Below are positions 5,001 through 27,888 of a stretch of 35,320 bases of DNA, piece after piece. Location of the stretch: the IMG/VR virus record IMGVR_UViG_2869970738_000004. One strand, written 5' to 3'. The notes under the pieces are model-generated. The model ran no database searches. It worked only from the letters and a program-made list of their open reading frames with translations, and was not told the origin of the DNA. Position 1 is the first letter of the stretch; each line of letters begins with the position of its first letter. Origin of the DNA: a virus. Lineage: Duplodnaviria > Heunggongvirae > Uroviricota > Caudoviricetes. Both the position numbers and the translations under genes were made by a program.

Positions 5001-5183
5001 AAGTAGTACAAATGAAAAAGCTGATATGCAAAGTACTGATTTAACCGGTGAGGATGTTAATCTTATGATGTTTTTTTCAATAAAATTCCATTTTAAATTC
5101 GAATAAAATGGATTTTTAACCATTTTATTACGAACATAGTTCTTTGCTAAAATCTCTGTTGCACTTAAAAATTGTCCAATCAT
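2064..5183 (-). CDS. Hypothetical 1039-aa membrane-anchored protein, AT-rich accessory gene between D and ogr; candidate defence/abortive-infection factor
   Basis: Single uninterrupted ORF; nucleotide composition clearly more AT-rich than flanking phage genes; four hydrophobic helices at about residues 49-190 followed by about 850 aa of Asn/Lys/Ile-rich soluble sequence; no canonical Walker A (GxxxxGK[ST]) seen. Confidence 0.8.
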   Translation of the reverse strand: MIGQFLSATEILAKNYVRNKMVKNPFYSNLKWNFIEKNIIRLTSSPVKSVLCISAFSFVLLYVGYLNELFIKNNLLHYFPFRHSLTEWQTTILSGQLTIIGIVYPLVIGLVSILFQKKADRKIAQTAYQRYSGFMLAGLSGLFLSGFILLSVLIKTVFGSYLYGIACLISILWLLINIVLSIWFFIVSLEILDDVKRQIIIKRYIAFEIVMPHICNKISAKLRLYPIYQKHNYSNLEIKQADYKGEYISVASSYSKEDELSLYHRPFQLTLNLINYQLKKKNHFASFVIGDNRTKETESTGKILFSVKNIKPDSLLIKILKQCFYRAPIKGGDFSVSLTMQAITADTYMYLRDSDLISFDNAISALINNFNNLCDLYFFQDDNTNNNFLLITTELFERSFQYEFSDEVYKISNNSMDKINLSERFFELCLWSGVRIINNRKHLISNELCIYMGITRSQWSILTEWFRNNQSLLNASLRSRYNRILRTYTTVWEQYQESINFRFCNTENSDLFELFCKTQLQELPSMIIDATQTRDPSTIDTAVDLINRWQHSMNIDSHSVEKYSYKGQLFNPGFFISKKLNFNSDREWFNIAIINALTDMRICTCLYLTSRINTSDKLMTHYIKLILEGKLIDQTGGYETPTEEIDNASQLIKILIRICLWTWSENMEHNGWMNSLARRLRDYDKTDMVMGRVYSNVFDCGFIDMEQSWVQLLLIFPNKNDSVSKEIKEAIENNYITYREKQRLIGVLSKICNSIEYTKIKLTLTLDDLQTKKENLRKLLQEHINMLKKDLDMRLQDAAIDVHRLDSTARKTSEHLRKRIKKTLPLSLFKSIDFKQASDCFTKHKISIKIDKEPYAEGIESIPYINEGDIQADLILKDIQRIILSNLFSTGCSQHTVIEDFNMLIDHIKSSADLAGKLVLVMSKEIFQQYNRMLFDNPNLRELMRKNDDGSMNITTESGTRKVYFLPFVNQPFSLVVKDNYFTKLIIREYDNNKLVNVTSENIKSDSDKFKLTLNYELNVVFEGNADLKIAHSQRVTSE

Positions 5184-5431
5184 GAATTACTCTTCTATAA
5201 AGTGTGGGTCTACTAACTAAACTGGAACTTTTACTATTGAGTCATATTCCCTTGGACGGGATGGACTGTGAAGATTATACTTGACTTCCTCTGTCATGTG
5301 GGAAAAACATCCGTATTATTGTTAGCATCTGGTTGATGCCCCAACCTCTGACATCTAGTGGGCTGATACATTATCTTTTGTTCTTACTGTCAGTGTAGAA
5401 GCACATCTCAAAAATAATATTTTTAAGAGAT

Positions 5432-6541
5432 TTATTCTGTTTCTGCTATCCATTCCGGGATTTTTGCTTCAAGTTCAAGCTGCGTGGTAAAGCCGCTGTT
5501 ATCAATGGTGTGCTCGGCTTTTGCAATAATCCAGTCCTGATAATCAATCTCGCTTTTAAAGCCTGTCACTGTGCCATGCATTTCGGGATAGAGTTCTGCA
5601 CGACCACGCGCCAGTGTGATGGAAAATGATGCGGCTCCGCGTTGTAGCTGCTGCCACTTTGCCGCCGCTGCGCGTCTTGCTGCCTGCTCGTTCTGATAAG
5701 TCTTGCGTAACACAAACACGTTGCCTTCCGCACCTTCCATATAGTCGCCTTCCCGACTGCTGCTTTTCTCCTTTTTGGGTTTTGGCGGTTTGCGGCGTTT
5801 CACGCTGACTTTTTTCTTTTTCCCGTAATTAAGATCAAGCCAGTAGGCGCGTACCCCCGTATACGCCTCGCGGTCAGCAATGCGGAACTGATGGCGATCG
5901 CCGCTGCTGCGTGTAATGGCGAACGAGGGCAACGGCTGCCCCTGTGCGTTCACGCCACCACCTGGCATGATGAATAACAGATTGCCGCTTTTTACCGTGG
6001 CGATTGCTCCCAGCATTTCCGCCATGCGCGTAAGAAAGGACATGTCGCTTTCTTCGGTCTGGTCGGCGTGGTCGATTTCGATATCCATCAGCATTTCGCT
6101 GATTTGCGGTTTCAGACCGTATCGATGAGCGATGGCGGATACCACACGCTCAACGGTCACATCATGCCAGGACACCTCACGTTTAACGTTAAATTCATCC
6201 CGAAAATCTGCGCTTCTGGCTGAAACAGTCAGCCTGTCCGGCGGTCCTTCGTGAGCGATTTCATCAACAATGTAAGTGCCTTTTTCTGTCAGCGGTTCCC
6301 CTTTCCAGCCAATGAGAACCGTCAGACGCGCGCCCCGTGGCGGTAGCTGCAACTGACCATCCGCATCATCCAGCGTGATGGTGAGCTGGTCCGCCTCAAA
6401 TCCCCGGTTGTCGGTCAGTTACAGGCTCATCAGGCGCTCCGCCACGCCTGACAGCGTTTTACCCTCCGAGAGAATATCAAAATCCGGCATTTTCACGGGG
6501 GCCGTGCCCTGACTGAGCAATTGCATGGTGGTGTCGGTCAT
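5432..6541 (-). pseudogene. D: P2 gpD-like tail protein with in-frame TAA at codon 41
   Basis: ATG at 6541 with GGAGGGAG RBS; frame reads MTDTTMQLLSQGTAPVKMPDFDILSEGKTLSGVAERLMSL, then TAA (6419-6421), then continues in the same frame into the 306-aa track ORF. Confidence 0.8.
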
Positions 6542-6698
6542 CTACTCCCTCCCTGTGCGGCATGGTCGCATGTGCGTGCGGAGGGGGTTACTGCTTTTTG
6601 TTGTCGCCGTGGCGGGAGAACGGCGCAGGGGTGAGATTACGCGCGTGGTGGGTGATGATTGTTGCTGAATCATTTAACGGATACAAGGGGCTGAAGCT

Positions 6699-7883
6699 AT
6701 GAGTGAAACTCGTTTTCATGGTGCCCGTGTTACGGAGAATACCGACCTGGTAACAGCGATTAACGATGTTGATTCCAGCGTTATCGGTATCGTGGCAACG
6801 GCGGATGATGCGGACGCGAAGCTGTTCCCGCTGAACAAGCCCACACTGCTGACCCGCGTCAATGACGTGCTGGGAAAATGCGGGACAACGGGGACGCTTT
6901 ATCGTGCGCTTAAGGCCATCGCAGACCAGGTGAGCACAAAGGTGATCGTCGTTCGCGTGGCTGAACACAAAGAAGAAGACGGAAAGACGCAGGATCAACT
7001 GGTTATCGGTGGTTCTGAGGATGACGGCAGCTATACGGGGATGTATGCGCTGCTTGTTGCAGAGCAGGATGAAAGCATCGGATACCGTCCGCGTATTCTG
7101 GCCGCGCCGGAGCTGGACACGGAGGCGGTAACAAAATCCCTGTGCGTGATTGCAGATAAACTGCGCGCGTTTGTGTATGCCTCATGTCATGGCTGTAACA
7201 CGATGGCCGAGGCAATTACCTACCGCCAGAAATTCAACGAACGTGAGGTGATGCTCTTATGGCCGGACTTCATCGCCTACAACCCGAAAAATGGCAAAAA
7301 CGAAACGTTCCCCGCGCCTGCCTATGCGTGCGGCCTTCGTGCGTACATTGACCATGAACAGGGATGGCACAAATCGCTGTCCAACGTTCCGGTTAAAAAT
7401 GTGCTGGGGATGTCGAGGCATGTGTTCTGGTCGTTGCAGGCCGAAGACAGCGATGCCAACAGCCTCAACAACAAAGAAATCACGACCATTATTCGTCGCA
7501 ACGGGGTCCGCTTCTGGGGTAACCGCACACCGGAAACGAACGCCTACATCTTTGAGGTGTATACCCGAACCGCACAGGTGCTGGCTGATTCAATTGCGGA
7601 AGCGCAGTTTGAAACCATCGACAGTCCACTGACGCCTGCGAATGTGAAGGATGTTATCAGTGCCATCAGGGCAAAACTGGATTCACTGGTGACTGCCGGG
7701 AAACTGATTGGCGCGGAGTGCTGGTATGACGTGGTGGATAACAGCACCACGGATTTACGTCAGGGACGTGTGCGTATTCGCTACAAATATACGCCCGTTC
7801 CGCCACTGGAAGACATGGAGCTTTACCAGACGTTTACTGATGAATACTTTGAACCCGCATTTGCGGTGCTGGGAGGTGCCTGA
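6699..7883 (+). CDS. FI: Tail sheath protein (P2 gpFI-like)
   Basis: 394-aa ORF with sheath-family conservation (…KLRAF.Y…WPDF…QGWHK.LSNV…IRR.G.RFWGNRT…YTPVPPLE…). Confidence 0.9.
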   Translation: MSETRFHGARVTENTDLVTAINDVDSSVIGIVATADDADAKLFPLNKPTLLTRVNDVLGKCGTTGTLYRALKAIADQVSTKVIVVRVAEHKEEDGKTQDQLVIGGSEDDGSYTGMYALLVAEQDESIGYRPRILAAPELDTEAVTKSLCVIADKLRAFVYASCHGCNTMAEAITYRQKFNEREVMLLWPDFIAYNPKNGKNETFPAPAYACGLRAYIDHEQGWHKSLSNVPVKNVLGMSRHVFWSLQAEDSDANSLNNKEITTIIRRNGVRFWGNRTPETNAYIFEVYTRTAQVLADSIAEAQFETIDSPLTPANVKDVISAIRAKLDSLVTAGKLIGAECWYDVVDNSTTDLRQGRVRIRYKYTPVPPLEDMELYQTFTDEYFEPAFAVLGGA

Positions 7884-8359
7884 TGGCTGTGCCAAAACAT
7901 CTTCGCTTTTTTACGCTGTTTGTGGATGGTGAAAACGAAGTGGGTAATGTGACGTCCGTCACTCTGCCTAAGCTGACGCGCAAAACCGACAGCTACCGGG
8001 GTGGTGGCATGATGGGTGCGGTAAGTATTGATCTCGGTCTGGACGACTCCGCGCTTGATGCGAGCTTTGTCATGGGGGCGCAGTTCGTGAGCTGTTCCTT
8101 AAGTATGGCGGCACGATTGACGGCACGCTGCTGCGTTTTGCGGGTGAATACTACACCGATGCAGAAAGCGACCTGTATGAAGTCGAAATGCGCGGACGTG
8201 TGACGGAAATTGATATGGGGGAAGCCAAACAGGGCGAAGCCACATCACACACTTACGCCATTAAAACACCTACTACAAGCTGAGTGTTAACGATCGCCCG
8301 TTGTGGGAGATTGACCTGCTGAACTTCATTTACCGGAAGGACGGGGTAATGACTCCAAC

Positions 8360-8737
8360 TTATTGATAGTGTTTTATGTTCAGATAATGCCCGATGACTT
8401 TGTCATGCAGCTCCACCGATTTTGAGAACGACAGCGACTTCCGTCCCAGCCGTGCCAGGTGCTGCCTCAGATTCAGGTTATGCCGCTCAATTCGCTGCGT
8501 ATATCGCTTGCTGATTACGTGCAGCTTTCCCTTCAGGCGGGATTCATACAGTGGCCAGCCATCCGTCATCCATATCACCACGTCAAAGGGTGACAGCAAG
8601 CTCATAAGACGCCCCAGCGTCGCCATAGTGCGTTCACCGAATACGTGCGCAACAACCGTCTTCCGGAGCCTGTCATACGCGTAAAACAGCCAGCGCTGGC
8701 GCGATTTAGCCCCGACGTATCCCCACTGTTCGTCCAT
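8360..8737 (-). CDS. insB: IS1 InsB reading frame (expressed as InsAB' by frameshifting)
   Basis: 125-aa [51 protein letters not shown]…. Confidence 0.85.
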
Positions 8738-8781
8738 TTCCGCGCAGACGATGACGTCACTGCCCGGCTGTATGCGCGAGG

Positions 8782-9057
8782 TTACCGACTGCGGCCTGAG
8801 TTTTTTAAGTGACGTAAAATCGTGTTGAGGCTAACGCCCATAATGCGTGCAGTTGCCCGGCATCCAACGCCATTCATGGCCATATCAATAATTTTCTGGT
8901 GCGTACCGGGTTGAGAAGCGGTGTAAGTGAACTGCAGTTGCCATGTTTTACGGCAGTGAGAGCAGAGATAGCGCTGATGTCCGGCAGTGCTTTTGCCGTT
9001 ACGCACCACCCCGTCAGTAGCTGAACAGGAGGGACAGCTGATAGAAACAGAAGCCAC
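8782..9057 (-). CDS. insA: IS1 InsA
   Basis: 91-aa [46 protein letters not shown]…. Confidence 0.9.
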
Positions 9058-9225
9058 TGGAGCACCTCAAAAACACCATCATACACTAAATCAGTAAGTT
9101 GGCAGCATCACCGAAGGACGGCAAGGACATTGTGCCCGATCGCATCCGTTCCGCGCTTGGGCTTGGCTGATAAGTAATATGCTGGCGGCGCAGTGCGTCG
9201 CCTCTGACTGAAAAGGAGACAACAG

Positions 9226-9600
9226 ATGAAAGACATCGATACTGAAACCCGGAATAACACCGTGGCGGATAATGTGACGGCAGTTGAGGATATGGCTGTC
9301 GAACGTGGCGTAAAACTGACCCGACCAATTGAGCGTGGTGGCGAAAAAATCACGTATGTGGAGATCACCGGGGCTATTGAGCAGGCTGGATCCCTGCGTG
9401 GTCTGTCGCTGTCTGATGTGCTGAATCTGAAAGCGGATACCATGTTCACGCTGTTGCCTCGCGTGACCTCGCCACGACTGGATGAAGTGATGATTAAAAA
9501 AATGTCGTCACGCGATTTTATTCAGTTGTGCGCTGTGGCTGTAAATTTTATGAGCGAGCCAGACTCTGGCGCGAAGAGCGTGCAGGAGACGGCAGCGTAA
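9226..9600 (+). CDS. E: Tail assembly chaperone (P2 gpE-like); a -1 frame extension (E', open to 9764) probably gives an E+E' product
   Basis: 124-aa ORF directly after FII; an overlapping -1 frame stays open from about 9500 to 9764; an A7 run at about 9497-9503 is a candidate slip site. Confidence 0.75.
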   Translation: MKDIDTETRNNTVADNVTAVEDMAVERGVKLTRPIERGGEKITYVEITGAIEQAGSLRGLSLSDVLNLKADTMFTLLPRVTSPRLDEVMIKKMSSRDFIQLCAVAVNFMSEPDSGAKSVQETAA

Positions 9601-9714
9601 TCACCCTGGTGTGCTTTGAGCACATCGAAGATCTGGTGGCGGATATTGCCGCCATTTTTAACTGGTCGCCCGCCGAAATCTTCATGATGACGCCCTGCGA
9701 AGTGGTTAGCTGGC

Positions 9715-12558
9715 GTGAGCGAGCGGCACTTCGTAGCGGGAATGCAGACAATGAAGACTCTTGATATCCGGGTCGCTTTCAGCGCCGTTGACAGGCTGAC
9801 CCGGCCTGCCGAAAACGCCCGCCGCCTGATGGGGCAGTTTGGTGACTCCATCCAGCGAACGCAGGGGGCGATCAAAAATCTCGAGCGTCAGGCGCGATCA
9901 TTTGAGCGCGCCCGTGACGCTGTCAGTAAAGCGGATGCGGGCATCGTGAAAGCACGACGCCAGCTTAACGCCCTTAATCAGTTACAACGCACGGGTACAG
10001 TGCTCAGCGAAAAACAACAAAAGCTGATGCAGCAGTTAAGCACCCGGCTTGAACGCCTGAATGAATCGCGCACACGGGAAATTCAGAAAATGCGGGAGCT
10101 TGGCGGAGAGCTGAAACGCCACGGCATTTCCCTGACAGGCAGCGATAACACCATCCAGCAGGCCATCAGACGCACCGAACAGTACAACAACCAGCTTGAA
10201 CGCGAACGGCAGGCGCTTGCGCGTGTAACACGGGCGCGTGAGCGGTATTCGCGCGCGCAGGAAACAGCGGGAAAACTGAAAACAGGTGGTGCGCTGGCAA
10301 TTGGTGCGGCAGCGGCGGGCGGCTATGCTGCCGGGCGTTTTTTGCAGCCTGCGATCGGGTTCGGCAAAGAGATGTTCCGCGTTCAGGCACTGACGCGAAT
10401 CGACCAGAACAGCCCGCAGTTTAAGGCGCTGCGTGAGCAGGCGTTAAAACTTGGCTCTGAAACGCAGTTCACCGCAGGCGATGCCGCCAGTGGACAGGCA
10501 TTTCTTGCAATGGCTGGCTTTACACCACAGGCCATTCAGGCTGCGCTCCCTGGCGTACTGAGCATGGCAACGGCTGGCGGTATGGACCTCGGTGAGACGG
10601 CGGATATTGGCTCAAATATTCTGACGCAGTTCGGTCTTTCTGCTGACCAGATGGACCGGGTCGGCGACACACTCACCGCAGCGTTTACCCGTACCAACAC
10701 TGACCTTCGCGCACTGGGTGAAACCATGAAATATGCAGGTCCGGTGGCGGGTAAGCTGGGAATATCTCTGGAGCAGGCCGCAGCGATGGCGGGCGTGCTG
10801 GCGAATATGGGTATCAGGGGGAGTGATGCTGGTACGGCAATGCGTGCCAGCCTGGCTCGTCTGGCATCACCGCCAAAGGCGGCAGCAGAGGCGCTGAAAG
10901 AGCTTGGCGTGTCTGTCTCGGATGCCGGGGGCAAAATGCGCCCGATGGAGGATGTGCTGGCTGACCTTTATAAAGCTACCCGCAAATACGGGGAAGTTGA
11001 CCGGGTATCGTTCTTTAAGGACATTGCCGGAGAAGAGGCTTTCACATCATTTATGGCCCTCGTTGATGCGGCAGGTGACGGCTCCTTACCCAAACTGAGA
11101 AAAGAACTTGAAGGCGCGCGCGGTGAGGCTGAACGCACGGCAAAGGTTATGGCCAACAACCTTGACGGCGATCTGAAATCACTCAGCAGTGCATGGGAAG
11201 GGTTGCGCATCCGCATTGCAGATCTGATTGACGGTCCGCTGCGTTCTGTCACGCAGTGGCTCACGCGTGTGGTATCAAAGGTGACGGCGCTGGCGCAGGC
11301 CCATCCCGCACTGACGCGCCAGCTACTGATTGCAGGCGGTGCATTGCTGGCAATGACTGCAACGGTTGGCTCGTTGTCGCTGGCTATTGGTGTGCTTGCT
11401 GGCCCGCTGGCAAAACTGCGTCTTGGTTTTTCCCTCCTGACCGGATCAATGAATGCTGTCAGGGTTCTGCCAGCACTATGGGGAATGGTGACGGGTTCCG
11501 TTTCTTTACTGGGAGGCGCTATCGGGGCGTTGTTCAGTCCGGTTGGTCTTATCGTGGCTGCGCTTGCCGGAGCTGCCGTTCTTATCTGGAAATACTGGGA
11601 TCCCATCAGGGCATTTTTTGCCGGGGTGTTCAGCGGGATTATGGAAAGGCTGACCCCGTTGCGCGAAACATTTGAACGGTTTGGTCCTGTTTTTGACGCA
11701 ATCGGGAGTGGGATCAGCCAGGTGTTTAACTGGTTTAAATCGCTGCTGTCACCGATGGAGTCCAGCAAGGAAACTCTGGATAAATGTACCAGTGCTGGCG
11801 AGATATTCGGTAACGTTCTTGGCGGTGCGTTACAACTTGTTCTGACACCTGCAAAAATGTTGCTGGATACGCTGGCGTGGATACTTGAAAAGCTTGGTGT
11901 GCTTCCGGATGAAGCGGAAAGGGCGCGCAAGAAAATCGAAGACGCACAGCGTGCGGCCATTCTTCAGGACAAGGTTGCCTTGCTTCAGGGGGACCTGGCG
12001 AAAATCAATCCGCCGAAGCCTGTGGAAAATGGCAATGGCACCGGAGGTGATAACCCCAAAGACAATAAACCGCTCACAGACAGCAATACCGGTACGCTGC
12101 GCAGACTCAGCAAAATTGCTGATAACACAGGTAAGCTGGTTGAGGAGACGAAAAAACGCATTGGCCCCGGCGATATTGTCTTTAAAAACCTGCCCCGAGC
12201 ACTTGCTGTTCGTGGGGAGTGGCAGGAGCGGAAGATTGCGCAGGTCAGTAAGCCTGCCCCCGCAATTAATATCACACCCGTGGTTCCGGCTCCGCTGCCT
12301 CCGGCGCTGGTCCCTGTTGTTGCGGCCAGCTCCCGCCCGGTGGCGGAGGCTATACGATCTCCAGTGGCATCAGTTCCTGTAACTTCCCGTAACCGGGAGC
12401 CTGTTGCCTCCGGATTTGGTGGTGAAATTCATGTTCATCTGCATAACGTTGTTACGCAGAATCCCCGCGAACTGGCGAAACTGGTCGGTGAAATGGTCAG
12501 GGCAGAAATGGAACGGCGCGCCCGTGCCGGGCGTGGCTGTTTTTACGATAAAGATTGA
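9715..12558 (+). CDS. T: Tail tape-measure protein (P2 gpT-like); true start may be an internal Met near 9742-9751
   Basis: 947-aa ORF with coiled-coil N-terminus, Gly/Ala-rich hydrophobic middle and Pro/Ala-rich tail, in the canonical position after E/E'. Confidence 0.9.
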   Translation: MSERHFVAGMQTMKTLDIRVAFSAVDRLTRPAENARRLMGQFGDSIQRTQGAIKNLERQARSFERARDAVSKADAGIVKARRQLNALNQLQRTGTVLSEKQQKLMQQLSTRLERLNESRTREIQKMRELGGELKRHGISLTGSDNTIQQAIRRTEQYNNQLERERQALARVTRARERYSRAQETAGKLKTGGALAIGAAAAGGYAAGRFLQPAIGFGKEMFRVQALTRIDQNSPQFKALREQALKLGSETQFTAGDAASGQAFLAMAGFTPQAIQAALPGVLSMATAGGMDLGETADIGSNILTQFGLSADQMDRVGDTLTAAFTRTNTDLRALGETMKYAGPVAGKLGISLEQAAAMAGVLANMGIRGSDAGTAMRASLARLASPPKAAAEALKELGVSVSDAGGKMRPMEDVLADLYKATRKYGEVDRVSFFKDIAGEEAFTSFMALVDAAGDGSLPKLRKELEGARGEAERTAKVMANNLDGDLKSLSSAWEGLRIRIADLIDGPLRSVTQWLTRVVSKVTALAQAHPALTRQLLIAGGALLAMTATVGSLSLAIGVLAGPLAKLRLGFSLLTGSMNAVRVLPALWGMVTGSVSLLGGAIGALFSPVGLIVAALAGAAVLIWKYWDPIRAFFAGVFSGIMERLTPLRETFERFGPVFDAIGSGISQVFNWFKSLLSPMESSKETLDKCTSAGEIFGNVLGGALQLVLTPAKMLLDTLAWILEKLGVLPDEAERARKKIEDAQRAAILQDKVALLQGDLAKINPPKPVENGNGTGGDNPKDNKPLTDSNTGTLRRLSKIADNTGKLVEETKKRIGPGDIVFKNLPRALAVRGEWQERKIAQVSKPAPAINITPVVPAPLPPALVPVVAASSRPVAEAIRSPVASVPVTSRNREPVASGFGGEIHVHLHNVVTQNPRELAKLVGEMVRAEMERRARAGRGCFYDKD

Positions 12559-12564
12559 GGAGTC

Positions 12565-13059
12565 ATGGCCATGATGATGATCTACGGCATGTTTGTTTTT
12601 GAGCTGCGCACGCTGCCGCATCAGCAGTTACAGCAAAACAAAAGCTGGCGGCATGTGAAAAATGAACGCGTTAACCGTTCAGCAAGCTGGCAGTATATCG
12701 GTGCAGGTGATGATCGCATCGTTCTTTCTGGTGTGCTTTATCCTGAAATTACAGGTGGCGAAGTGTCGCTGTCGCTGCTGACCACGCAGGCGTATACAGG
12801 ACGACCCTGGCCTTTGATTGATGGCGTCGGGCAGATTTACGGCATGTATGTCCTGACTGAAACGAATACGACCCGCTCCGAGTTTGATCGCTACGGTAAG
12901 GCGAAAAAGATAGAATTTTCACTGACTCTTGAACGCTGTGATGAGGATTTGCGGGAGCGCCTGCAATCCTCATCGTTCAGTGATATGCTGTCCGGCTTCA
13001 AAGATAAGGTGACATCATCTCTTAACAGCGCGGCCAGTTCAGTTAAAGGGCTGTTCTGA
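12565..13059 (+). CDS. U: Tail protein (P2 gpU-like)
   Basis: 164-aa ORF immediately after T with RBS GAGGAG; gpU-like sequence (…YPEITGGE…PLIDG.G.IYGMYV…). Confidence 0.85.
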   Translation: MAMMMIYGMFVFELRTLPHQQLQQNKSWRHVKNERVNRSASWQYIGAGDDRIVLSGVLYPEITGGEVSLSLLTTQAYTGRPWPLIDGVGQIYGMYVLTETNTTRSEFDRYGKAKKIEFSLTLERCDEDLRERLQSSSFSDMLSGFKDKVTSSLNSAASSVKGLF

Positions 13060-13068
13060 TTTAACACA

Positions 13069-13098
13069 AAAACCGCTAATGGTCAGATTAGCGGTTTT
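13069..13098. terminator. Perfect 12-bp-stem hairpin between convergent U and invertase genes; likely bidirectional terminator
   Basis: AAAACCGCTAAT-GGTCAG-ATTAGCGGTTTT; T-run follows on the + strand, A-run precedes. Confidence 0.6.
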
Positions 13099-13732
13099 CA
13101 TTTTCCTGAGTCTGCCCGGTTGTTTCTTCAGTCTGTATATCGCCTACAGGGTGATAACGATAAATCGTCGATGTGCCAATGCCGTAAATTATTGCCAGTT
13201 GTTTTCTGTCGTGCCCGTTTTTGATTAGCCTTGCTATTTGCTCATGCTGTTCTTTTGTCAGCTTCGGTCGACGTCCGCCTGTGCGCCCCCTTGCGCGCGC
13301 TGCCGCCAGCCCGGCCAGTGTACGTTCAACAATTAATTCACGTTCCATTTCAGCCAGGGCACCCATCACGTGGAAGAAAAAACGCCCCATTGGAGAAGAT
13401 GTGTCTATGCTGTCGGTCAGACTGCGAAAATTAATCCCTCGCTCCCGTAGTTCCCCGACGAGAGAAATCAGATGTTTCATGCTTCGCCCGAGGCGATCCA
13501 GTTTCCAGACAACCAGCGTGTCACCTTTTTGAAGGCGCTTTAAAGCGCGTTTTAATCCCGGTCGGTCTGTCTTTGTCCCGCTTAATTTATCTTCAAATAT
13601 TTGTTCACATCCTGCACAAACAAGAGCGTTTCGTTGCAGGTCTGTATTGTTGATACCCTTACATAGCCAATCAGCACACTGAATCTCCCGTCCAAAAGCG
13701 CAAATCATGCCATGCAGGCCAGAAACGGCCAT
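13088..13732 (-). pseudogene. Gin/Pin/Cin/Hin-family serine DNA invertase, N-terminal frameshift separating the catalytic-serine motif from the body
   Basis: Body matches invertases (…NTDLQRNALVCAGCEQIFEDKLSGT.TDRPGLKRAL…HTH); the motif LIGYVRVST is encoded in a different frame from NTDLQ, consistent with a 10-bp deletion between short ATA repeats. Confidence 0.8.
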
Positions 13733-13756
13733 TATTTAAAACCTCGGTTTACAGGA
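13731..13756. other. gix/cix-like invertase crossover site (distal)
   Basis: TTATTTAAAACCTCGGTTTACAGGAA abutting the invertase start; shares the core ACCTCGGTTTAC with an inverted copy at 17965-17990. Confidence 0.65.
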
Positions 13757-13781
13757 AACGGTAAACAGGGCTGGTAACGCC

Positions 13782-14618
13782 GTGCAAAAAAATGGCGATA
13801 CCTTGTCCGGTGGGCTTACTTTTGAAAATGACTCAATCCTTGCCTGGATTCGAAATACTGACTGGGCGAAGATTGGATTTAAAAATGATGCCGATGGTGA
13901 CACTGATTCATACATGTGGTTTGAAACAGGCGACAACGGCAATGAATATTTCAAATGGAGAAGCCGCCAGAGCACCACAACAAAAGACCTGATGACGCTG
14001 AAATGGGATGCACTAAATATTCTTGTTAATGCTGTCATTAATGGCAGTCTTGGAGTTGGTTCGACGAATGCGTTAGGTGGTAGCTCTATTGTTCTTGGTG
14101 ATAATGACACCGGATTTAAACAGAATGGAGACGGTATTCTGGATGTTTATGCTAATAGTCAGCGTGTATTCCGCTTTCAGAATGGAGTGGCTATTGCTTT
14201 TAAAAATATTCAGGCCGGGGATGGTAAAAAATTCACGCTATCCAGCTCCAACAACTTCACAAAGAATGCAACGTTTAATTTATGGGGTGCTTCAACCCGT
14301 CCAGTAGTTGCAGAGTTAGGCGATGAGGCAGGATGGCATTTCTATAGCCAGCGAAATACAGATAACTCGGTAATATTTTCTGTTAACGGTCAGATACAGC
14401 CCAGCAACTGGGGGAATTTTGATTCACGCTATGTAAAAGATGTTCGCCTGGGTACGCGTGTTGTTCAATTGATGGCGCGTGGTGGTCGTTATGAAAAAGC
14501 CGGACACGCAATTACCGGATTAAGAATCATTGGTGAAGTAGATGGCGATGATGAAGCCATCTTCAGACCAATACAAAAATACATCAATGGCACATGGTAT
14601 AACGTCGCACAGGTGTAA
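13782..14618 (+). CDS. Alternative tail-fibre C-terminal (receptor-binding) cassette in the silent orientation; coding continuity starts at the crossover site near 13757
   Basis: ORF ends …[11 protein letters not shown], paralleling the reconstructed end of H (…INGTWYNAGSI); frame is continuous back to the gix core. Confidence 0.7.
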
Positions 14619-14621
14619 ATT

Positions 14622-15150
14622 ATGCAGCATATTAAAAAATATTAAGTCCGGAAATCCAAAAACAAAAGAACAATATCAGCTAACAAAGAATTTTGATGTT
14701 ATCTGGTTATGGTCCGAAGACGGTAAAAACTGGTATGAGGAAGTAAATAACTTTCAGGACGACACCATAAAGATTGTATACGACGAAAATAATATTATTG
14801 TTGCCATAACCAAAGATGCCTCAACGCTTAATCCCGAAGGCTTTAGTGTCGTTGAGATTCCAGATATAACAGCCAATCGTCGCGCCGATGATTCAGGGAA
14901 GTGGATGTTTAAGGACGGAACTGTGGTTAAGCGGATTTATACAGCAGACGAACAGCAACAACAGGCCGAATCACAAAAGGTCGCGTTGCTTTCTGAAGCT
15001 GAAAGCGTTATTCAGCCACTGGAACGCGCTGTCAGGCTGAATATGGCGATGGATGAGGAACGCACACGACTGGAGTCATGGGAACGCTACAGCGTTCTGG
15101 TCAGCCGTGTGGATACAGCAAATCCCGAATGGCCACAAAAGCCTGAGTAA
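14622..15150 (+). pseudogene. Tail-fibre assembly protein (alternative copy) with +1 frameshift in an A6 run at codons 5-7
   Basis: ATG at 14622 reads MQHIKKY then stop; the homologous body ([17 protein letters not shown]…) is in the next frame; the paralogue on the other strand reads [22 protein letters not shown]. Confidence 0.6.
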
Positions 15151-15155
15151 AAATT

Positions 15156-15175
15156 AAGGCCCAATATCGGGCCTT
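15156..15175. terminator. Hairpin between the two convergent tail-fibre assembly genes
   Basis: AAGGCCC-AATATC-GGGCCTT. Confidence 0.5.
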
Positions 15176-15178
15176 CTC

Positions 15179-15712
15179 TCATTCTGGTTGTTCGGGAAAC
15201 GTTACTGGCAGGCTGGAGGTGTCTGTAGATTCGACTTTCTGCGCATAGAGCATCCACTCGGTTAATTTTTGTTTATTCTCGTCGGAAATGATGCCCAGCC
15301 GTAGCTGTGAGTCCCATAGCTGGGTTTTATCCCTGACAAGTTGCAACAGGCTTTGCTTTTCATTTTCCGCTTGTTGCCTCTGCTCTTCCTCGGTATAAGT
15401 TCGCTTTATCACTACGCCATCTTTGAACAACCATTTCCCCGAAATATCAGCCCGGCGATTTGCTGTAATATCAGGTAATTCAACGACGCTTGCGCCTTCC
15501 GGATTAATTGCTGAAACATCCTTTTCAATACAAATAATAACGCCGTTATGGTCATAGACCATTTTCAAAGTGTCTGGCTGGAAATTCTTTTGCTCCTCAT
15601 ACCAGTTTTTTCCATCATCTGAATAAAGCCATTTGATGTTAAATTGCTTTGTTAGCTGGTATTGCTCTTTTGTTTTAGGGTTGCCAGCAGTAATGTTTTT
15701 TAAGTGCATCAT
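15179..15712 (-). CDS. Tail-fibre assembly protein (P2 gpG / Mu U-like), expressed orientation
   Basis: 177-aa [23 protein letters not shown]…; start 2 nt after the reconstructed H stop. Confidence 0.85.
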   Translation of the reverse strand: MMHLKNITAGNPKTKEQYQLTKQFNIKWLYSDDGKNWYEEQKNFQPDTLKMVYDHNGVIICIEKDVSAINPEGASVVELPDITANRRADISGKWLFKDGVVIKRTYTEEEQRQQAENEKQSLLQLVRDKTQLWDSQLRLGIISDENKQKLTEWMLYAQKVESTDTSSLPVTFPEQPE

Positions 15713-15840
15713 CGTTAAATACTCCCCGCGTTATACCACGTCCCATTAATGCAATACTGAATTGGCCTTGCCTGTGTTGTATCAATTAATTCATCACGGT
15801 TTCCGTTAACTGAACCCGTAACGACGGTAATGACTCCAAC

Positions 15841-16218
15841 TTATTGATAGTGTTTTATGTTCAGATAATGCCCGATGACTTTGTCATGCAGCTCCACCGA
15901 TTTTGAGAACGACAGCGACTTCCGTCCCAGCCGTGCCAGGTGCTGCCTCAGATTCAGGTTATGCCGCTCAATTCGCTGCGTATATCGCTTGCTGATTACG
16001 TGCAGCTTTCCCTTCAGGCGGGATTCATACAGTGGCCAGCCATCCGTCATCCATATCACCACGTCAAAGGGTGACAGCAAGCTCATAAGACGCCCCAGCG
16101 TCGCCATAGTGCGTTCACCGAATACGTGCGCCACAACCGTCTTCCGGAGCCTGTCATACGCGTAAAACAGCCAGCGCTGGCGCGATTTAGCCCCGACGTA
16201 TCCCCACTGTTCGTCCAT
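15841..16218 (-). CDS. insB: IS1 InsB reading frame
   Basis: Protein identical to copy 1. Confidence 0.85.
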
Positions 16219-16262
16219 TTCCGCGCAGACGATGACGTCACTGCCCGGCTGTATGCGCGAGG

Positions 16263-16538
16263 TTACCGACTGCGGCCTGAGTTTTTTAAGTGACGTAAAA
16301 TCGTGTTGAGGCTAACGCCCATAATGCGTGCAGTTGCCCGGCATCCAACGCCATTCATGGCCATATCAATAATTTTCTGGTGCGTACCGGGTTGAGAAGC
16401 GGTGTAAGTGAACTGCAGTTGCCATGTTTTACGGCAGTGAGAGCAGAGATAGCGCTGATGTCCGGCAGTGCTTTTGCCGTTACGCACCACCCCGTCAGTA
16501 GCTGAACAGGAGGGACAGCTGATAGAAACAGAAGCCAC
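16263..16538 (-). CDS. insA: IS1 InsA
   Basis: Protein identical to copy 1. Confidence 0.9.
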
Positions 16539-16793
16539 TGGAGCACCTCAAAAACACCATCATACACTAAATCAGTAAGTTGGCAGCATCACCCGTAACG
16601 ACATAACCTGACCTGTCAGACCAGCCGGGACCATTCCATGTCTGAACAGATGACAGACCGCCAAGGCGAATACCTGTAATAAACCTTGAGTTACATTCTG
16701 CCCGCGTATATGCACCAACATCTCCCGCTGAAGGTTTTCGTGTCGTGGTATAGAAATCTGACCAACCTAATTCAACCCGGTAATGACTCCAAC

Positions 16794-17171
16794 TTATTGA
16801 TAGTGTTTTATGTTCAGATAATGCCCGATGACTTTGTCATGCAGCTCCACCGATTTTGAGAACGACAGCGACTTCCGTCCCAGCCGTGCCAGGTGCTGCC
16901 TCAGATTCAGGTTATGCCGCTCAATTCGCTGCGTATATCGCTTGCTGATTACGTGCAGCTTTCCCTTCAGGCGGGATTCATACAGTGGCCAGCCATCCGT
17001 CATCCATATCACCACGTCAAAGGGTGACAGCAAGCTCATAAGACGCCCCTGCGTCGCCATAGTGCGTTCACCGAATACGTGCGCAACAACCGTCTTCCGG
17101 AGCCTGTCATACGCGTAAAACAGCCAGCGCTGGCGCGATTTAGCCCCGACGTATCCCCACTGTTCGTCCAT
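16794..17171 (-). CDS. insB: IS1 InsB reading frame
   Basis: 125-aa ORF. Confidence 0.85.
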
Positions 17172-17215
17172 TTCCGCGCAGACGATGACGTCACTGCCCG
17201 GCTGTATGCGCGAGG

Positions 17216-17491
17216 TTACCGACTGCGGCCTGAGTTTTTTAAGTGACGTAAAATCGTGTTGAGGCTAACGCCCATAATGCGTGCAGTTGCCCGGCATCCA
17301 ACGCCATTCATGGCCATATCAATAATTTTCTGGTGCGTACCGGGTTGAGAAGCGGTGTAAGTGAACTGCAGTTGCCATGTTTTACGGCAGTGAGAGCAGA
17401 GATAGCGCTGATGTCCGGCAGTGCTTTTGCCGTTACGCACCACCCCGTCAGTAGCTGAACAGGAGGGACAGCTGATAGAAACAGAAGCCAC
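17216..17491 (-). CDS. insA: IS1 InsA
   Basis: 91-aa ORF. Confidence 0.9.
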
Positions 17492-17964
17492 TGGAGCACC
17501 TCAAAAACACCATCATACACTAAATCAGTAAGTTGGCAGCATCACCATTCAACCCCATAACCATCATGAGCCGACCTGTAGGAAATGCCACCATTTTTAT
17601 AATTCACACGGAATTGTACGGCAGGACAGCTACCAGCATTTATATTAAAGTGAAGAATTAATGCAGATGCACCACCAATCAGGGCGTTATATGCACTACT
17701 ATCCCAATTCCATCCAATGGATGTATCACCATTAACAGTATTACCTGTTTGTCGGAGTGCAAATGCATTGACATTTTTGGCACTAATTGAAATATCGCTA
17801 GAACCATCAAAACCAACTCCAGCAATTTTTCGTGCTGTTTTCAGCTTTGTTGCAGTAGCGGCATTGCCGGACAGTTCCCCAGAAAGGCCACCGCTGAATG
17901 TTTGTCGATTGGTCCAGGTATTCGCTGTACTGAGTAACGGTATTTTCTCCCCGCTTGTGCCGAG

Positions 17965-17990
17965 TTCTCGTAAACCGAGGTATTCGATAA
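17965..17990. other. gix/cix-like crossover site (proximal), inside H at the constant/variable boundary (about codon 426)
   Basis: Reverse complement TTATCGAATACCTCGGTTTACGAGAA shares 12-bp core ACCTCGGTTTAC and TTAT flank with the site at 13731-13756, in inverted orientation. Confidence 0.6.
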
Positions 17991-18360
17991 CGGCAGCAAC
18001 GATCGATTTCGCAAGAATATCCCGCCCGACTTTTGTCAGGGTTGCCAGGCTGGCGACATCATTCCCCGTAAAATACGGAAACCTGTCTGCCGCAGTAGCA
18101 AGCCCGGCCAGCGCCGTCAGGGTGGCATCTTTCGGTTGCTTACCCGCAAGCGCGTTAGTCATGGTGGTCGCAAAATTCGGGTCGTTTCCCAGCGCCGCCG
18201 CTAACTCGTTCAGCGTATTCAGTGCGTCAGGTGACGAATCTACAAGGGCGGCAATCGCAGCCATAACGAAAGCCGTGCTTGCGATTTGGGTATTATTCGT
18301 TCCCTGTCGCGCAGTTGGCGTTGTTGGCGTTCCGGTCAGCGCAGGACTGTTTAAGGGCGC

Positions 18361-18726
18361 TTTCTTGTTCGTTTCATCCATTACCGCCTTAACCGCTTTC
18401 GATGTCGCGGCCAGTGTTTCAGACGTGCTGTTGGTGGCACTACTGAGCTGGACTATCCCTTTTTGTGCCGTCGTGGCGTCCTGAGCGGTATATTTTGCGT
18501 TAGCAAGGTCATACGCGGCCTTTACTGCTTTCGGCGTTGCAGCCTGCGTTTCAGACGTGCTGTTGGTGGCGCTACTGAGCTGGACAAGGCCTTTTCGCGT
18601 CGTGCTGGCATCCTGCGCAGTATATTTACCGTTAGCAAGATCATACGCGGCCTTTACTGCTTTCGGCGTTGCAGCCTGCGTTTCAGACACGCTGTTAGTG
18701 GCGCTACTGAGTTGAACAAAGCCTTT
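18361..18726 (-). repeat. About 2.8 tandem copies of a 132-bp (44-aa) in-frame coding repeat within H
   Basis: Protein repeats KG[FLI]VQLSSATNS.SETQAATPKAVKAAYDLAN.KYTAQDA; nucleotide period visible as GTTAGCAAG[GA]TCATACGCGGCC recurring 132 bp apart. Confidence 0.8.
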
Positions 18727-19256
18727 TGCGGTCAGCGAGGCGTCCGGGTGACGTCGTGACTGTTCATGCTCTTTCAGTTTGTCATCCACGTAATCCACTG
18801 TGGCCATCACCATGGTGTTGTCCACGGTAAGCGCCACGGTGGCAGTGCTGGATACGGTCAGAATGGTGCGAAATGTTTGTGCACGACCGGACCCTTCGGC
18901 AACGGCTGGCTTGTAACTTTCGGCAGTATTTCCCACCGCGATTAAATCGCCGTGCTCATCAAATACACCAATTTCCCGGATCCAGAATCCGCCCGTTTCA
19001 GGAGGAATAACCAGCTCCGCAATAATGCGGTTCTGATGTGTTGCGTCCAGGATGACGCGATTAACAGTATGTCGCCACACCTCATGCACCAGACGGGTCT
19101 GCTTACTGTCTGGTGTGGGCAACGTGCCGCCACCGTCGCCCACGGCCATATGAGTCAGGCGGACAGGCTTACCATCTGGCGCGGCTACCTGAGCTAATTT
19201 TTTTGCACCCGTATCGGTGATAATGGTTTTAAATTTTCGTGTTGTGGTACTCATGC

Positions 19257-19820
19257 TTAATCGCCTGGATAAATGGTAATAACTTCACCGTCATAAGTTG
19301 CCGCCGCTGCGAAAATATCCCCCGGAATTTCCTGAATGATATTCAGCCCTGTCATGTGGCGGCTGACCGGGCGGGCATCAGCAATCAACCGCTCCATTTC
19401 CAGATACATTTCCTCCGTCACGCCACTGTCCAGCGTGCCGACTTCAACGGTAAATGTTCCCGGTTCTCCGCCGAACTCCCACCACTCAGACACGCGAATG
19501 AGGTATCCCAGCGGCTCAATGGCCCGGCGCAGTGCGCTGATGGTCCCTTTGTGTCGGTGTATCAGCCATGCATCACGAATAACCTGTCGCTTTGTCTCTT
19601 CCGGCCAGTTGCGATCCCAGCGGTCAACGGAAAACGCCCAGGCGAGATAAGGCAGCAGATGCACCGGGCAGGTGTCCGGCGACCACAGCGTGTTGAGGTC
19701 TACCGGAATGTCTGTAATGCGTGTTCCGACGGCTTCGGCACAACGCATGAAATTGCTGGCTGATGGTGGTAACAACGAATTACTCATTGCGTCCACCTTC
19801 GCTGATGGTGAATGACTCAC
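19257..19820 (-). CDS. I: Baseplate protein (P2 gpI-like)
   Basis: 187-aa ORF in canonical position between J and H. Confidence 0.8.
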   Translation of the reverse strand: MSHSPSAKVDAMSNSLLPPSASNFMRCAEAVGTRITDIPVDLNTLWSPDTCPVHLLPYLAWAFSVDRWDRNWPEETKRQVIRDAWLIHRHKGTISALRRAIEPLGYLIRVSEWWEFGGEPGTFTVEVGTLDSGVTEEMYLEMERLIADARPVSRHMTGLNIIQEIPGDIFAAAATYDGEVITIYPGD

Positions 19821-23244: not shown

Positions 23245-24158
23245 GCCGGATAGGCTCCGTGTGGTAACTGAAAATGCGGTCCGTCTTTCAGGGTCTTCCA
23301 GTCGCCGCCCCATTCCACCGGAATATTCAGTTCCCGGCTGGCCTGTCTGAATGCTGCTGCGATTTTTTCGTACAGCGGCCATTCCCATGACACCTGGCTG
23401 CCGATATAAGCCACAACATCCACGGCATGCCCCGTAAGGTGGCGGCTGTTCATGGTCTGGCTCTTACCCGTGGCCACCAGTTGCTTCTGGCGGTAACGGC
23501 TGCGCAACCCTTCGGTGATACCAAAATCCACTTCCGAGATTTCCAGTGCCCGTCGGGTCACTTTCACCAGATCAGGATTTACACCCTGCAAATTCTTTTC
23601 GCTCCGGCTGCTGAATTTAAATGTGTTGCTCATTCGTCCTTCTCCTTCACTCTGGATACTGTTAAACGTCATCACCGCCTGACGTTGCTGTGCCGTGAAT
23701 TTCAGGCGCTCAGTGCCCAGGCTTGCCGGGGTGTCGGTCATCGCCAGCCCGACCAGATAGGCGCGCCCGTTAACGGAGAACTGCGGGTGCAGTTCGATAC
23801 TGGAATAGATTTTCTTGCCGTCCGCAACAAGCTGCTTCATGCGCTCGGTCGGTTCGATTTCTGCATACAGCGCAGTACGTCCGGCCAGCGGACCTTCCGT
23901 AATGTCTTCCGTACTCAGTGCGGTGACATCGCCCATTGCGGAAAATTCGCTTGACGGGCATGGCGAGAGATAGTGCTCAACGTTCACGCGGGCAGCGTAA
24001 ACATCCGGGTTGAAGTTCTCGGCGGCTTCACGCAGATGCACCGGACTGATTTCACGGCCATCAACAGTTGATCCGGAGACAGCCACGCGAAACTTTTTGC
24101 GGGATGTCTTTTTTTCATTAGCCATAGTTTTTGCCCCTCTGACTGGTTCTTCAGTCAT
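23241..24158 (-). CDS. In-frame fusion of a gpO (capsid scaffold) N-terminal fragment with an M15-peptidase endolysin; the endolysin may initiate separately at the internal Met near 23633
   Basis: Residues 12-160 are gpO-like (…FRVAVSGSTVDGREIS…YLVGLAMTDTPASLGTE…); residues 176-305 are M15 endolysin-like (MSNTFKFSSRSEKNLQGVNPDL…HLTGHAVDV…); an AGGAGAAGG RBS is translated within the linker. Confidence 0.7.
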   Translation of the reverse strand: MTEEPVRGAKTMANEKKTSRKKFRVAVSGSTVDGREISPVHLREAAENFNPDVYAARVNVEHYLSPCPSSEFSAMGDVTALSTEDITEGPLAGRTALYAEIEPTERMKQLVADGKKIYSSIELHPQFSVNGRAYLVGLAMTDTPASLGTERLKFTAQQRQAVMTFNSIQSEGEGRMSNTFKFSSRSEKNLQGVNPDLVKVTRRALEISEVDFGITEGLRSRYRQKQLVATGKSQTMNSRHLTGHAVDVVAYIGSQVSWEWPLYEKIAAAFRQASRELNIPVEWGGDWKTLKDGPHFQLPHGAYPA

Positions 24159-25927
24159 GATGGCAAAGCGTAACAGGCTGATACAAAGGGCTTTTGTTGT
24201 AAGAAAACGGCCAGAACAGAGGGTTAAGGAGAACAGTTTCGCGCGCGGGTAATCTTCCTGTAATTACTCAGGGGAGCAATGATTCAGGACGCTTTTGTGC
24301 GCCAGCGTGCGCGGCAACTTTACTGGCAGGGTTATCCGCCCGCAGAAATATCACGTCTGATGGGAATAAACCCGAACACGATTTATGCGTGGAAAAAACG
24401 TGACCAGTGGGATGAAACGCCACCCGGGCAGCGTGTCACGCAGTCCATCGATGCGCGCCTCATCCAGCTTACTGAAAAACAGAATAAAACAGGCGGTGAC
24501 TTTAAGGAAATAGACCTGCTGACCCGGCAGCTTAAAAAGCTGCATGATGGCCAGCCGGATGTGATGGCCGCAGGAAAGAAAGGCCGGGCGAAAAAACTCA
24601 AAAATCATTTCACGCCGGAACAGATTGCCGCACTGCGGGAAAAAATCATCAGCAGGCTGGAGTGGCATCAGCGGGGCTGGTTTGACTCCCTGACCCTTTG
24701 CAGGGAAGCCGGGATACGTAACAGGATGATCCTGAAATCCCGACAGATTGGGGCGACCTGGTATTTTGCACAGGAAGCACTGCTGATGGCGCTGCGTGAC
24801 GATGTGGCGCAACCTTACCAGCGTAACCAGATTTTTTTGTCTGCGTCGCGTCGTCAGGCGTTCCAGTTTAAAAGCATTATTCAGAAGGCGCGGCTGAAGT
24901 TGATGTGGAGCTGAAAGGGGGCGATAAAATCATCCTCTCCAACGGCGCAGAGCTGCATTTTCTCGGCATTTCTGCTGCGTCGGCACAGTCCTATACGGGC
25001 AATTTTTATTTTGATGAATTTTTCTGGGTCAGTCGCTTTGCTGAACTGCGCAAGGTGGCTGGCGCTATGGCAACCCTCAGCGGACTGCGGCGCACCTACT
25101 TCTCCACGCCATCCACCGAAACGCACGAGGCATACGCCTACTGGAACGGCGACCGCTGGAACGAGAAAAAGGCCTCGCATAAACGCCAGCGTTTTTCTGT
25201 GGACTGGAAAACGCTGCATAACGGGCTTATCTGCCCTGACCGGACGTGGCGGCAAATTGTCACGCTGGAAGATGTGGTTAATCACGGCTGGAAACACACC
25301 GATATCGACGAAATTCGTGATGAAAACACCGAAGACGAGTTCCTCAATCTCTATATGTGCGAGTTTGTCCGCGAAGGGGAATCGGCATTTAACCTGAATA
25401 TCCTGATTGGCTGCGGCGTTGACGGATACGACGACTGGAAAGACTGGAAACCTTTTGCTCCCCGCCCGATGGGGAATCGTCCGGTATGGATTGGGTATGA
25501 CGCAAACGGCAGCAGTGGCAACGGCGACAGCGGCGCTGTGTCCGTGGTGGTTCCTCCGTCTGTTCCTGGTGGCCGTTTTCGAACGGTGGAGACGCGACGC
25601 GTTCAGGGGCTGGAGTTTGAAGAACAGGCCAGAGTCATTGAAGAGTTCACGTGTCGCTACAACGTGGAACACATCGGCATTGATGTGACGGGCGGGAACG
25701 GGGAGGCTGTTTATCAGATAGTGAAACGGTTTTTCCCTGCCGCTATTCCGTACACCTTCACGCTGTCATCAAAACGGTCGCTGGTACTGAAAATGCTGCA
25801 AATAATGCGTGCCGGGCGGTGGGAATACGATCGCGCCGAACGCGAGCTGGTCGCGGCCTTTAACGCCGTGCGGGTGATGCTGCCAACTTACTGATTTAGT
25901 GTATGATGGTGTTTTTGAGGTGCTCCA

Positions 25928-26203: not shown

Positions 26204-26247
26204 CCTCGCGCATACAGCCGGGCAGTGACGTCATCGTCTGCGCGGAA

Positions 26248-27863: not shown

Positions 27864-27888
27864 TGCGCTTCGCTTGTCTGCTGCTTCG

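Follow-up and report, generated by a model that had tools for sequence, protein, structure and literature searches.

An invertible tail-fibre segment of the Gin/Cin/Pin type, decayed and probably frozen, in a Xuanwuvirus prophage of Shigella boydii

Organisation of the locus

The subject of this study is a tail-fibre locus in the virus record IMGVR_UViG_2869970738_000004, a stretch of 35,320 nucleotides (nt) from a member of the Caudoviricetes that is referred to below, at its full length, as the window. The locus consists of a P2 gpH-like tail fibre gene, H, whose variable part is interrupted by two copies of the insertion sequence IS1, a second tail-fibre cassette that is silent and faces the first, a tail-fibre assembly (chaperone) gene behind each of the two cassettes, two inverted 26-bp sites, and the pseudogene of a serine DNA invertase (Table 1). 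A sequence-only reading made earlier had proposed that these parts form an invertible tail-fibre switch resembling the G segment of phage Mu, embedded in a P2-like tail cluster and now apparently locked. Over 20,645 bp the window agrees at every position with CP026795.1 (GCA_002950275.1), a record that a preprint assigns to S. boydii ATCC BAA-1247.

Table 1. Features of the tail-fibre locus, with positions in the window
Feature	Position	Strand	Basis or remark
Gin-like serine DNA invertase, pseudogene	13088-13677	-	Pfam Resolvase and HTH_7
Stretch homologous to the Fis-dependent recombinational enhancer, shortened by the 10-bp deletion	13598-13659	-	P1 annotation, via alignment
Invertase-proximal 26-bp site (gixR/bixR-like), intact	13732-13757	+	TTATTTAAAACCTCGGTTTACAGGAA = TTATTTAAAACC TC GGTTTACAGGAA
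Silent tail-fibre C-terminal cassette, Mu/P1 Sv type, intact, 288 amino acids from the core	13752-14618	+	Pfam Gp34_trimer
Silent chaperone gene, Mu U type, frameshifted	14622-15150	+	Caudo_TAP
G+C-rich hairpin between the convergent chaperone genes	15156-15175	.	consensus match only
Tail-fibre assembly (chaperone) gene, Mu U' type, intact, 177 amino acids	15179-15712	-	Caudo_TAP; 97% Mu U'
3' end of the expressed H cassette, roughly the last 36 codons and the stop	15715-15825	-	
IS1, 768 bp	15826-16593	-	9-bp target duplication CGTAACGAC (15817-15825, 16594-16602)
H variable-cassette fragment between the two IS1 copies	16594-16778	-	
IS1, 768 bp	16779-17546	-	9-bp target duplication ATTCAACCC (16770-16778, 17547-17555)
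Proximal part of the expressed H variable cassette, P1 Sv / Mu S'v type	17547-17964	-	
H-internal 26-bp site, intact	17965-17990 (read 17990-17965)	-	TTATCGAATACCTCGGTTTACGAGAA = TTATCGAATACC TC GGTTTACGAGAA
Constant N-terminal part of the P2 gpH-like tail fibre gene H, intact	17982-19254	-	amino acids 1-424, upstream of the YLGL core

The two sites share the 12-bp core ACCTCGGTTTAC, which occurs exactly twice in the window, at 13741-13752 on the plus strand and at 17970-17981 on the minus strand; two matches were reached in none of 100 dinucleotide-preserving shuffles. A repeat finder widens this pair to arms of 30 nt that are 80% complementary, and a fuzzy search of the window with the 26-mer of Mu gix finds only the two 26-bp sites. 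Both are centred on a TC/GA dinucleotide, lie in inverted orientation and fit the consensus of Din-family dix sites, TTC---AAAC- -A -GTTT---GAA. Alignment to gix, cix and pix, which the earlier reading had suggested as a check on its two inverted gix-like sites, carries the similarity to gix and cix well past the core: the invertase-side site agrees with Mu gix at 24 of 26 positions, the H-side site with Mu gix at 22 and with P1 cixR at 23, and e14 pix is more distant. Codons 425-428 of H (YLGL) are encoded by the H-side site, which had been placed at about codon 426.

The constant part of H contains a Pfam Phage_tail_fib domain and three Phage_fiber_2 repeats; the latter coincide with three tandem 132-bp repeats (18386-18745, 75-83% identical) that are found in relatives too. 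When IS1 is removed, the C-terminal 165 amino acids (aa) of the expressed cassette are 86% identical to Mu S'v, and the Mu U'-type chaperone gene serves this cassette. The silent cassette, with an aa identity of 47-55% to Mu and P1 Sv, lacks a start, and only inversion would bring it to expression. The gene behind it is frameshifted, and an intact 175-aa relative of its product is 97% identical to Mu U. The convergent C-terminal cassettes, each followed by its own assembly gene, are thus arranged as had been described.

Joining 17970-19254 (reverse complement) to 13753-14618 at the core yields 2151 nt that form a single open frame of 716 aa, and the junction of this fusion is exactly the one that had been predicted. 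The tail fibre accordingly has two open forms, one of 661 aa (IS1 removed) and one of 716 aa, both of which are annotated as tail fibre genes in relatives: alternative C-termini are swapped in frame onto one constant N-terminus, and each comes with its own chaperone.

Inversion in intact relatives

The genes around the locus are of the P2 type (GpU, GpE, tape measure, GPD, sheath, tube, Tail_P2_I, Baseplate_J, GPW, V and Phage_tail_S, and further GpR, GPO and terminase). With Escherichia phage 503458, which is classified as Xuanwuvirus, Peduoviridae, and whose record already labels the gene "DNA invertase", the region shares 96.7% identity; the prophage is also collinear with that of Escherichia coli UTI89, which places it in the same genus and family and bears out the P2-like setting. 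A megablast search of complete E. coli genomes returned many copies that cover 77% of positions 12500-19300 of the window, which is everything except the two IS1 elements. The highest identity was that of GDSC2BY4G (99.5%), and that of UTI89 is 98.5%; taken together with RM13745, these copies have an identity of 98-99.5% to the window and depart from it only in the four lesions listed below. The prophage is frequently found intact in E. coli. The annotated order in the relatives is tape measure, GpU-like protein, recombinase, tail fibre fragment, two assembly genes, a 661-aa tail fibre, gpI, gpJ, gpW and gpV. Both 26-bp sites of the window are identical at all 26 positions to sites of active relatives, the invertase-side site to that of UTI89 and GDSC2BY4G.

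Orientation was counted in complete E. coli genomes with two 512-nt junction queries. The native H junction, in the orientation of the window, is present in 161 genomes (counted at a coverage of at least 80%), and the predicted flipped junction is present, in one piece and at up to 99.8% identity, in 358. Among the complete genomes with the switch, those in which H is joined to the Mu Sv-like cassette are roughly twice as numerous as those with the window's orientation, a difference to which inversion bias, clonal sampling or assembly choice may contribute.

Comparison of single pairs of genomes locates the exchange. In IHE3034, which has the same invertase protein as UTI89, the segment is flipped and a tail fibre gene of 716 aa is annotated. 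Aligned with each other, the two genomes show a flank, an inverted block of 2712 bp and a second flank. The sites of UTI89 are TTATTTAAAACC-TC-GGTTTACAGGAA and TTATCGAATACC-TC-GGTTTACGAGAA, those of IHE3034 are TTATCGAATACC-TC-GGTTTACAGGAA and TTATTTAAAACC-TC-GGTTTACGAGAA, and this is a clean exchange of the inner half-sites. A 716-aa tail fibre gene of the same architecture is annotated in RM11911, again in the flipped orientation. The flanks of this genome agree at every position with those of RM13745 over 6262 and 3588 nt, and between the two the segment is precisely inverted, with the same half-site exchange; since the two differ by a precise inversion between identical flanks, the switch works in relatives. 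The pattern of half-site exchange is the one that site-specific recombination at the central dinucleotide predicts. Both orientations occur among relatives, the sites align past their core and the fusion keeps its frame, and these were the points on which the earlier reading had said that it could fail.

Inactivation of the copy in the window

The lesions were listed by removing the IS1 copies and one target duplication each from the window and aligning the remainder to the intact copy of GDSC2BY4G. Beside 17 substitutions there are only four structural differences: a 10-bp deletion in the invertase gene, an additional A in the silent chaperone gene, and the two IS1 insertions in the expressed cassette.

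By comparison with relatives, in which the invertase has 199 aa and begins MLIGYVRVSTNDQNTDLQRNAL, the authentic start of the gene is a GTG at 13677, 54 nt from the crossover site. The deletion lies between 13646 and 13647 and corresponds to nt 30-39 of the gene, so that codons 10-13 (NDQN) are gone and the frame is shifted; from the authentic start the window encodes just a 31-aa peptide, VLIGYVRVSTIQTCNETLLFVQDVNKYLKIN, before a stop codon. Because these codons are deleted and the frame is shifted, no product of the window joins the catalytic serine to the rest of the invertase. The 214-aa open reading frame (ORF) at 13088-13732, which is without the GYVRVST catalytic-serine motif, is an artefact that arises where an upstream frame is read into the body of the invertase gene. 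Its ATG at 13732 explains why the site had seemed to abut the start of the invertase, a claim that does not hold for the authentic gene; that the invertase is frameshifted had been recognised correctly.

The same 10 bp lie in a stretch homologous to the recombinational enhancer of related systems. The GenBank record of P1 annotates the Cin enhancer at nt 19-90 of cin, and when the 5' ends of the invertase genes are aligned the deletion occupies columns 30-39, inside the region aligned to this enhancer; the first 120 nt of the gene in relatives are identical to Mu gin at 118 positions. The distance from the deletion to the crossover centre is about 98 bp, and the Hin system has its proximal Fis site some 100 bp from hixL (PMC3798978). 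By the annotation in P1 and the geometry of Hin, the deletion is likely to have damaged the enhancer in cis as well, and rescue by a foreign Din invertase would then be inefficient. A literature search on the Gin recombinational enhancer found no enhancer coordinates. That one deletion of 10 bp strikes both the catalytic region and the stretch homologous to a cis enhancer is a detail of modest interest.

In the expressed cassette, the IS1 copy at 16779-17546 cuts the reading frame of H to 570 aa. The two copies in the cassette differ at 2 positions, have the ends GGTAATGACTCC... and ...GGCAGCATCACC, and are recognised as IS1 by InsA and InsB, by the Pfam domains Zn_ribbon_InsA, HTH_Tnp_IS1 and DDE_Tnp_IS1, and by their 9-bp duplications. 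One of them may be dated relative to other lesions: the related assembly GCA_002968185.1 (PTES01000001.1) has the invertase deletion and the IS1 at 16779, and it has a clean empty site at 15826, so that the insertion at 15826 is probably the latest event. An assembly that is without one IS1 copy thus allows some of the events to be put in sequence. The run at 14634-14639 in the silent chaperone gene is one A too long (A6 instead of A5); this shifts the frame, which ends after MQHIKKY. Since the expressed cassette carries two IS1 copies and the silent chaperone gene a +1 frameshift, neither orientation could now give a working pair of fibre and chaperone.

The earlier reading had named both the double IS1 insertion and the frameshift in the silent assembly gene (tfa). 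Its broader statement that every component carries a lesion is right for the invertase, the silent tfa and the expressed cassette, but there is no lesion in the silent cassette, in the chaperone gene at 15179-15712 or in either site. For annotation, it follows that two ORFs delivered by gene callers, a 214-aa "recombinase" and a 570-aa "tail fibre", are artefacts of the frameshift and of the IS1 insertion, respectively. A better annotation would name a pseudogenised Gin-type invertase together with an invertible tail-fibre segment, both belonging to a defective Xuanwuvirus prophage. The locus is a tidy case of prophage decay in Shigella driven by IS1 and small indels, and its importance beyond annotation is small.

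Comparison with known inversion systems

The intact invertase of the relatives is 80% identical to Gin, 72% to Cin and 77% to PinE, and it matches the crystal structures of Gin in PDB entries 4M6F (E=3e-100) and 3UJ3 (E about 1e-100). It is a serine recombinase of the Din family, with a resolvase domain and a helix-turn-helix, and the copy in the window is a pseudogene of that family. The intact protein is very common: its cluster at 90% identity has 1018 members and the exact sequence occurs on at least 1000 contigs. The names in this cluster are only "recombinase family protein", and the label PinB is absent from them.

The closest parallel in layout is the G segment of Mu with gin, where the invertase likewise lies outside the segment and two convergent Sv/U cassettes serve one constant N-terminus. 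The spacing of 54 nt between gixR and gin in Mu is the same as that between site and invertase here, the TC/GA centre is shared, the chaperones are 97% identical to U and U', and parts of the segment are 91-95% identical at the DNA level to Mu, D108, P1, P7 and D6; the likeness to Mu that had been proposed is therefore real. The differences are that the constant part is here a 428-aa region of the P2 gpH type and in Mu the Sc region, that the segment measures about 2.68 kb without IS1 as against about 3.06 kb, and that the cassette in the position of Mu Sv is just 47% identical to it. Moreover, the host is a P2-like prophage, whereas Mu is transposable, and the copy in the window is dead.

With the C segment of P1 and P7 and its invertase gene cin, the locus shares the H-side junction, IEYLGLRELGTSGEKIPLLSTANTW, which closely parallels IQYLGLRELGTSGEKIPLLSTANTW of P1 S, the match of the H-side site to cixR, and the position, in the 5' end of the invertase gene, of an enhancer that is putative here; residues 180-428 of H are 57% identical to P1 Sc. 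In contrast, cix has TT/AA at its centre, and the TC/GA found here is that of gix. The gene cin is transcribed towards its segment and overlaps cixL, whereas the invertase gene at this locus points away from the segment, as in Mu.

The B segment with pinB (D00660) is known from the same species, and we compared it through its published sites, bixL and bixR, which are listed for S. boydii PinB in Table 3 of PMC3241671. The reverse complement of bixL is identical at all 26 positions to the H-side site of the flipped IHE3034 and RM11911, and bixR differs from the invertase-side site of the window at one position (25/26). For the outer half-sites of the window, the agreement is 12/12 between the H-side site and bixL and 11/12 between the invertase-side site and bixR. 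By coordinates quoted in the P1 record and in PMC3241671, the B segment appears to be about 3.1 kb long, with TTCCTG as both inner half-sites, whereas the present segment has 2.68 kb and one TTCTCG inner half-site. Also, pinB is active and the copy in the window is inactive. The pinB B segment was reportedly described by Tominaga et al. in 1991 as G-like with a different 5' constant region. That the locus could be the pinB/B segment itself, a question judged here by the published bix sites, is an unproven idea.

Segments of this kind also have precedents in prophages. Inversion in P2-like E. coli prophages has been shown by sequencing and the polymerase chain reaction, for example in enteropathogenic E. 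coli (EPEC) E2348/69 (Goldberg et al. 2014, PMC4272514), and the invertible tail-fibre loci of this strain and of the intact Xuanwuvirus copies in UTI89 and 503458 are the same kind of element with the same mechanism, of which the window holds an inactivated example. The P segment with pinE of e14 in E. coli K-12 is likewise part of a defective prophage in which a Din invertase adjoins an invertible tail-fibre segment; it differs in its pix sites (18/26 to gix, with an AA core), in the lambdoid nature of its prophage and in that pinE is active. A literature search on Xuanwuvirus found nothing on the switch itself. Given the matches to Mu, to P1, to the bix sites and to Xuanwuvirus 503458, together with PMC4272514, both the kind of system and the family of prophage are already known, and the switch is an ordinary, textbook one.

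Interpretation and alternatives

We conclude, with a probability of roughly 0.93, that the region is a Din-family (Gin/Cin/Pin-type) invertible tail-fibre segment of a Xuanwuvirus prophage which has decayed in S. boydii, leaving the switch frozen. The switch of intact relatives would be worked by a serine invertase whose gene lies directly beside the segment and which recombines the two inverted sites, one of them 54 nt upstream of that gene and the other within H, at the central TC/GA dinucleotide. Each inversion would swap the C-terminal receptor-binding cassette, with its own chaperone, that is fused to the N-terminal 428 residues of H, and the exchange of cassettes is expected to alternate the host range of the phage. 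In the window the switch would have been frozen, with H joined to the cassette of the Mu S'v/U' type, by the deletion that removed the invertase codons beside the catalytic serine, shifted the frame and, judged by homology, cut the Fis enhancer. Enhancer function would be lost and residual inversion would be absent from this strain. All five of the assemblies or contig sets of this lineage have one and the same orientation, and together with the lesion of the invertase and the deletion in the enhancer-homologous stretch this gives good support to the description of the switch as locked. Some considerations weigh on the other side. Both sites are intact, and residual inversion may take place in trans; it is the P1 annotation and the Hin geometry that suggest damage to the enhancer; and the five assemblies, being from related strains, do not count as independent trials.

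The intact sites lead to the thought that the locking is incomplete, the segment still being flipped now and then by a second Din invertase encoded elsewhere in S. boydii and acting in trans. Hin, Gin, Cin and Pin are reported to complement one another (Tominaga et al. 1991), an entry in a reference list refers to two invertases acting on the H segment of Salmonella, and the sites are, as described above, the same as those of active relatives. Against this stand the uniform orientation in the five assemblies or contigs of the lineage and the place of the deletion, which falls inside the stretch homologous to an enhancer that wild-type Din invertases require in cis; we regard such flipping as unlikely. 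It is a longer shot still that a host Din invertase, by recombining the intact sites in trans in spite of the damaged enhancer, occasionally draws an intact 716-aa H-Sv' fusion from the dead prophage. If it did, the fusion would be a phase-variable surface or tail-like protein retained by the host and not pure debris. A related thought is that the separate hits on the invertase, on one cassette and on the chaperone of the other might reflect selection against the locus in Shigella and not neutral decay.

Could the lesions be errors of sequencing or assembly, the switch being intact in the strain? The frameshift of the silent chaperone gene does fall in a homopolymer, and GCA_002968185.1 has the intact 175-aa form. 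It is, however, this assembly that is error-prone: over positions 3084-15825 of the window it differs, apart from the empty IS1 site, by six 1-nt homopolymer contractions, some of them inside other genes, and by two substitutions. Long reads with errors in homopolymers probably underlie this assembly, in which neither the split tape-measure gene nor the "intact" chaperone can be trusted. The frameshifted form is found in 5 contigs, Illumina-based ones among them, and for these reasons we rejected the idea that the frameshift is an artefact. Across the deletion, the extra A and one IS1 junction, the window is matched at 100% identity by Logan contigs from ERR200265 and SRR8186739 and by the NCBI assembly GCA_014039695.1, and since these independent contigs agree with it the lesions are not sequencing errors. 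Deletions of 10 bp and IS1 copies with target duplications are, besides, untypical of such errors, so that an intact switch behind faulty data is very improbable. Least credible of all is the view that the inverted repeats are remains of duplicated tail-fibre genes, with the orientations interchanged by general homologous recombination. The cassettes do share some sequence and the two chaperone genes are 56% identical to each other, but the identity at the breakpoints is only 12 bp, the breakpoints lie exactly in the middle of 26-bp sites of the Din consensus, the half-sites are cleanly exchanged, and an invertase that is 80% identical to Gin adjoins the sites. All this returns us to site-specific inversion, and to a decayed Din-family switch as its remnant in the window.

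The prophage and its decay

Decay extends beyond the tail-fibre locus. Further IS1 copies lie at 8345-9112 (99.9% identical to the copy at 15826), where the 3' end of the tail tube gene is disrupted, and at 25873-26640 (98.3%), where the large terminase gene is. Four IS1 copies in 35 kb are typical of Shigella. Around positions 23645-23657 of the window, about 3.4 kb of the UTI89 prophage (25001-28373 of the compared stretch) have been deleted, with the genes for holin, tail protein X, head completion protein, small terminase and major capsid and part of the scaffold gene; what is left there is called as a 294-aa chimaera of the N-terminus of the GPO scaffold and an M15 peptidase. Because of the two additional IS1 copies and the loss of lysis and head genes in this deletion, the prophage, judged from its gene content, is defunct and should be unable to make particles. 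A reading of it as a tailocin or otherwise domesticated element was considered and rejected: tube, terminase and expressed fibre are disrupted by IS1, and lysis and head genes are deleted.

Between the convergent chaperone genes, the hairpin listed in Table 1 is likely to be a terminator, to judge by its match to the consensus. A scan of positions 12900-19400 for promoters and terminators gave no enrichment over shuffles, and only two hairpins, between convergent genes, look meaningful.

Towards the left end of the window there is an element of the IS3 family (402-1732; ORF 816-1721, plus strand, 301 aa, with the Pfam domains rve, rve_3 and HTH_21), which is absent from UTI89 and sits between a hok/gef-like end region and an ogr-like gene. 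Beside it, between the ogr-like gene and gpD, a stretch at 1970-5435 holds a 1039-aa ORF (2064-5183, minus strand) with a G+C content of 33%, as against 50.7% for the window; the slot is empty in UTI89 and is occupied by a PIN-domain gene in other relatives. The ORF has no match in Pfam, PADLOC, NCBIfam or PHROGs, and tblastn gave none in 50,697 phage records. The stretch occurs in 5 of 5426 complete E. coli genomes, where the names given by PGAP are "MFS transporter" or "hypothetical protein". About four hydrophobic helices at the N-terminus of its product (aa 45-197) are followed by a large soluble part, and the ORF is a candidate for a cargo or defence gene of the prophage.

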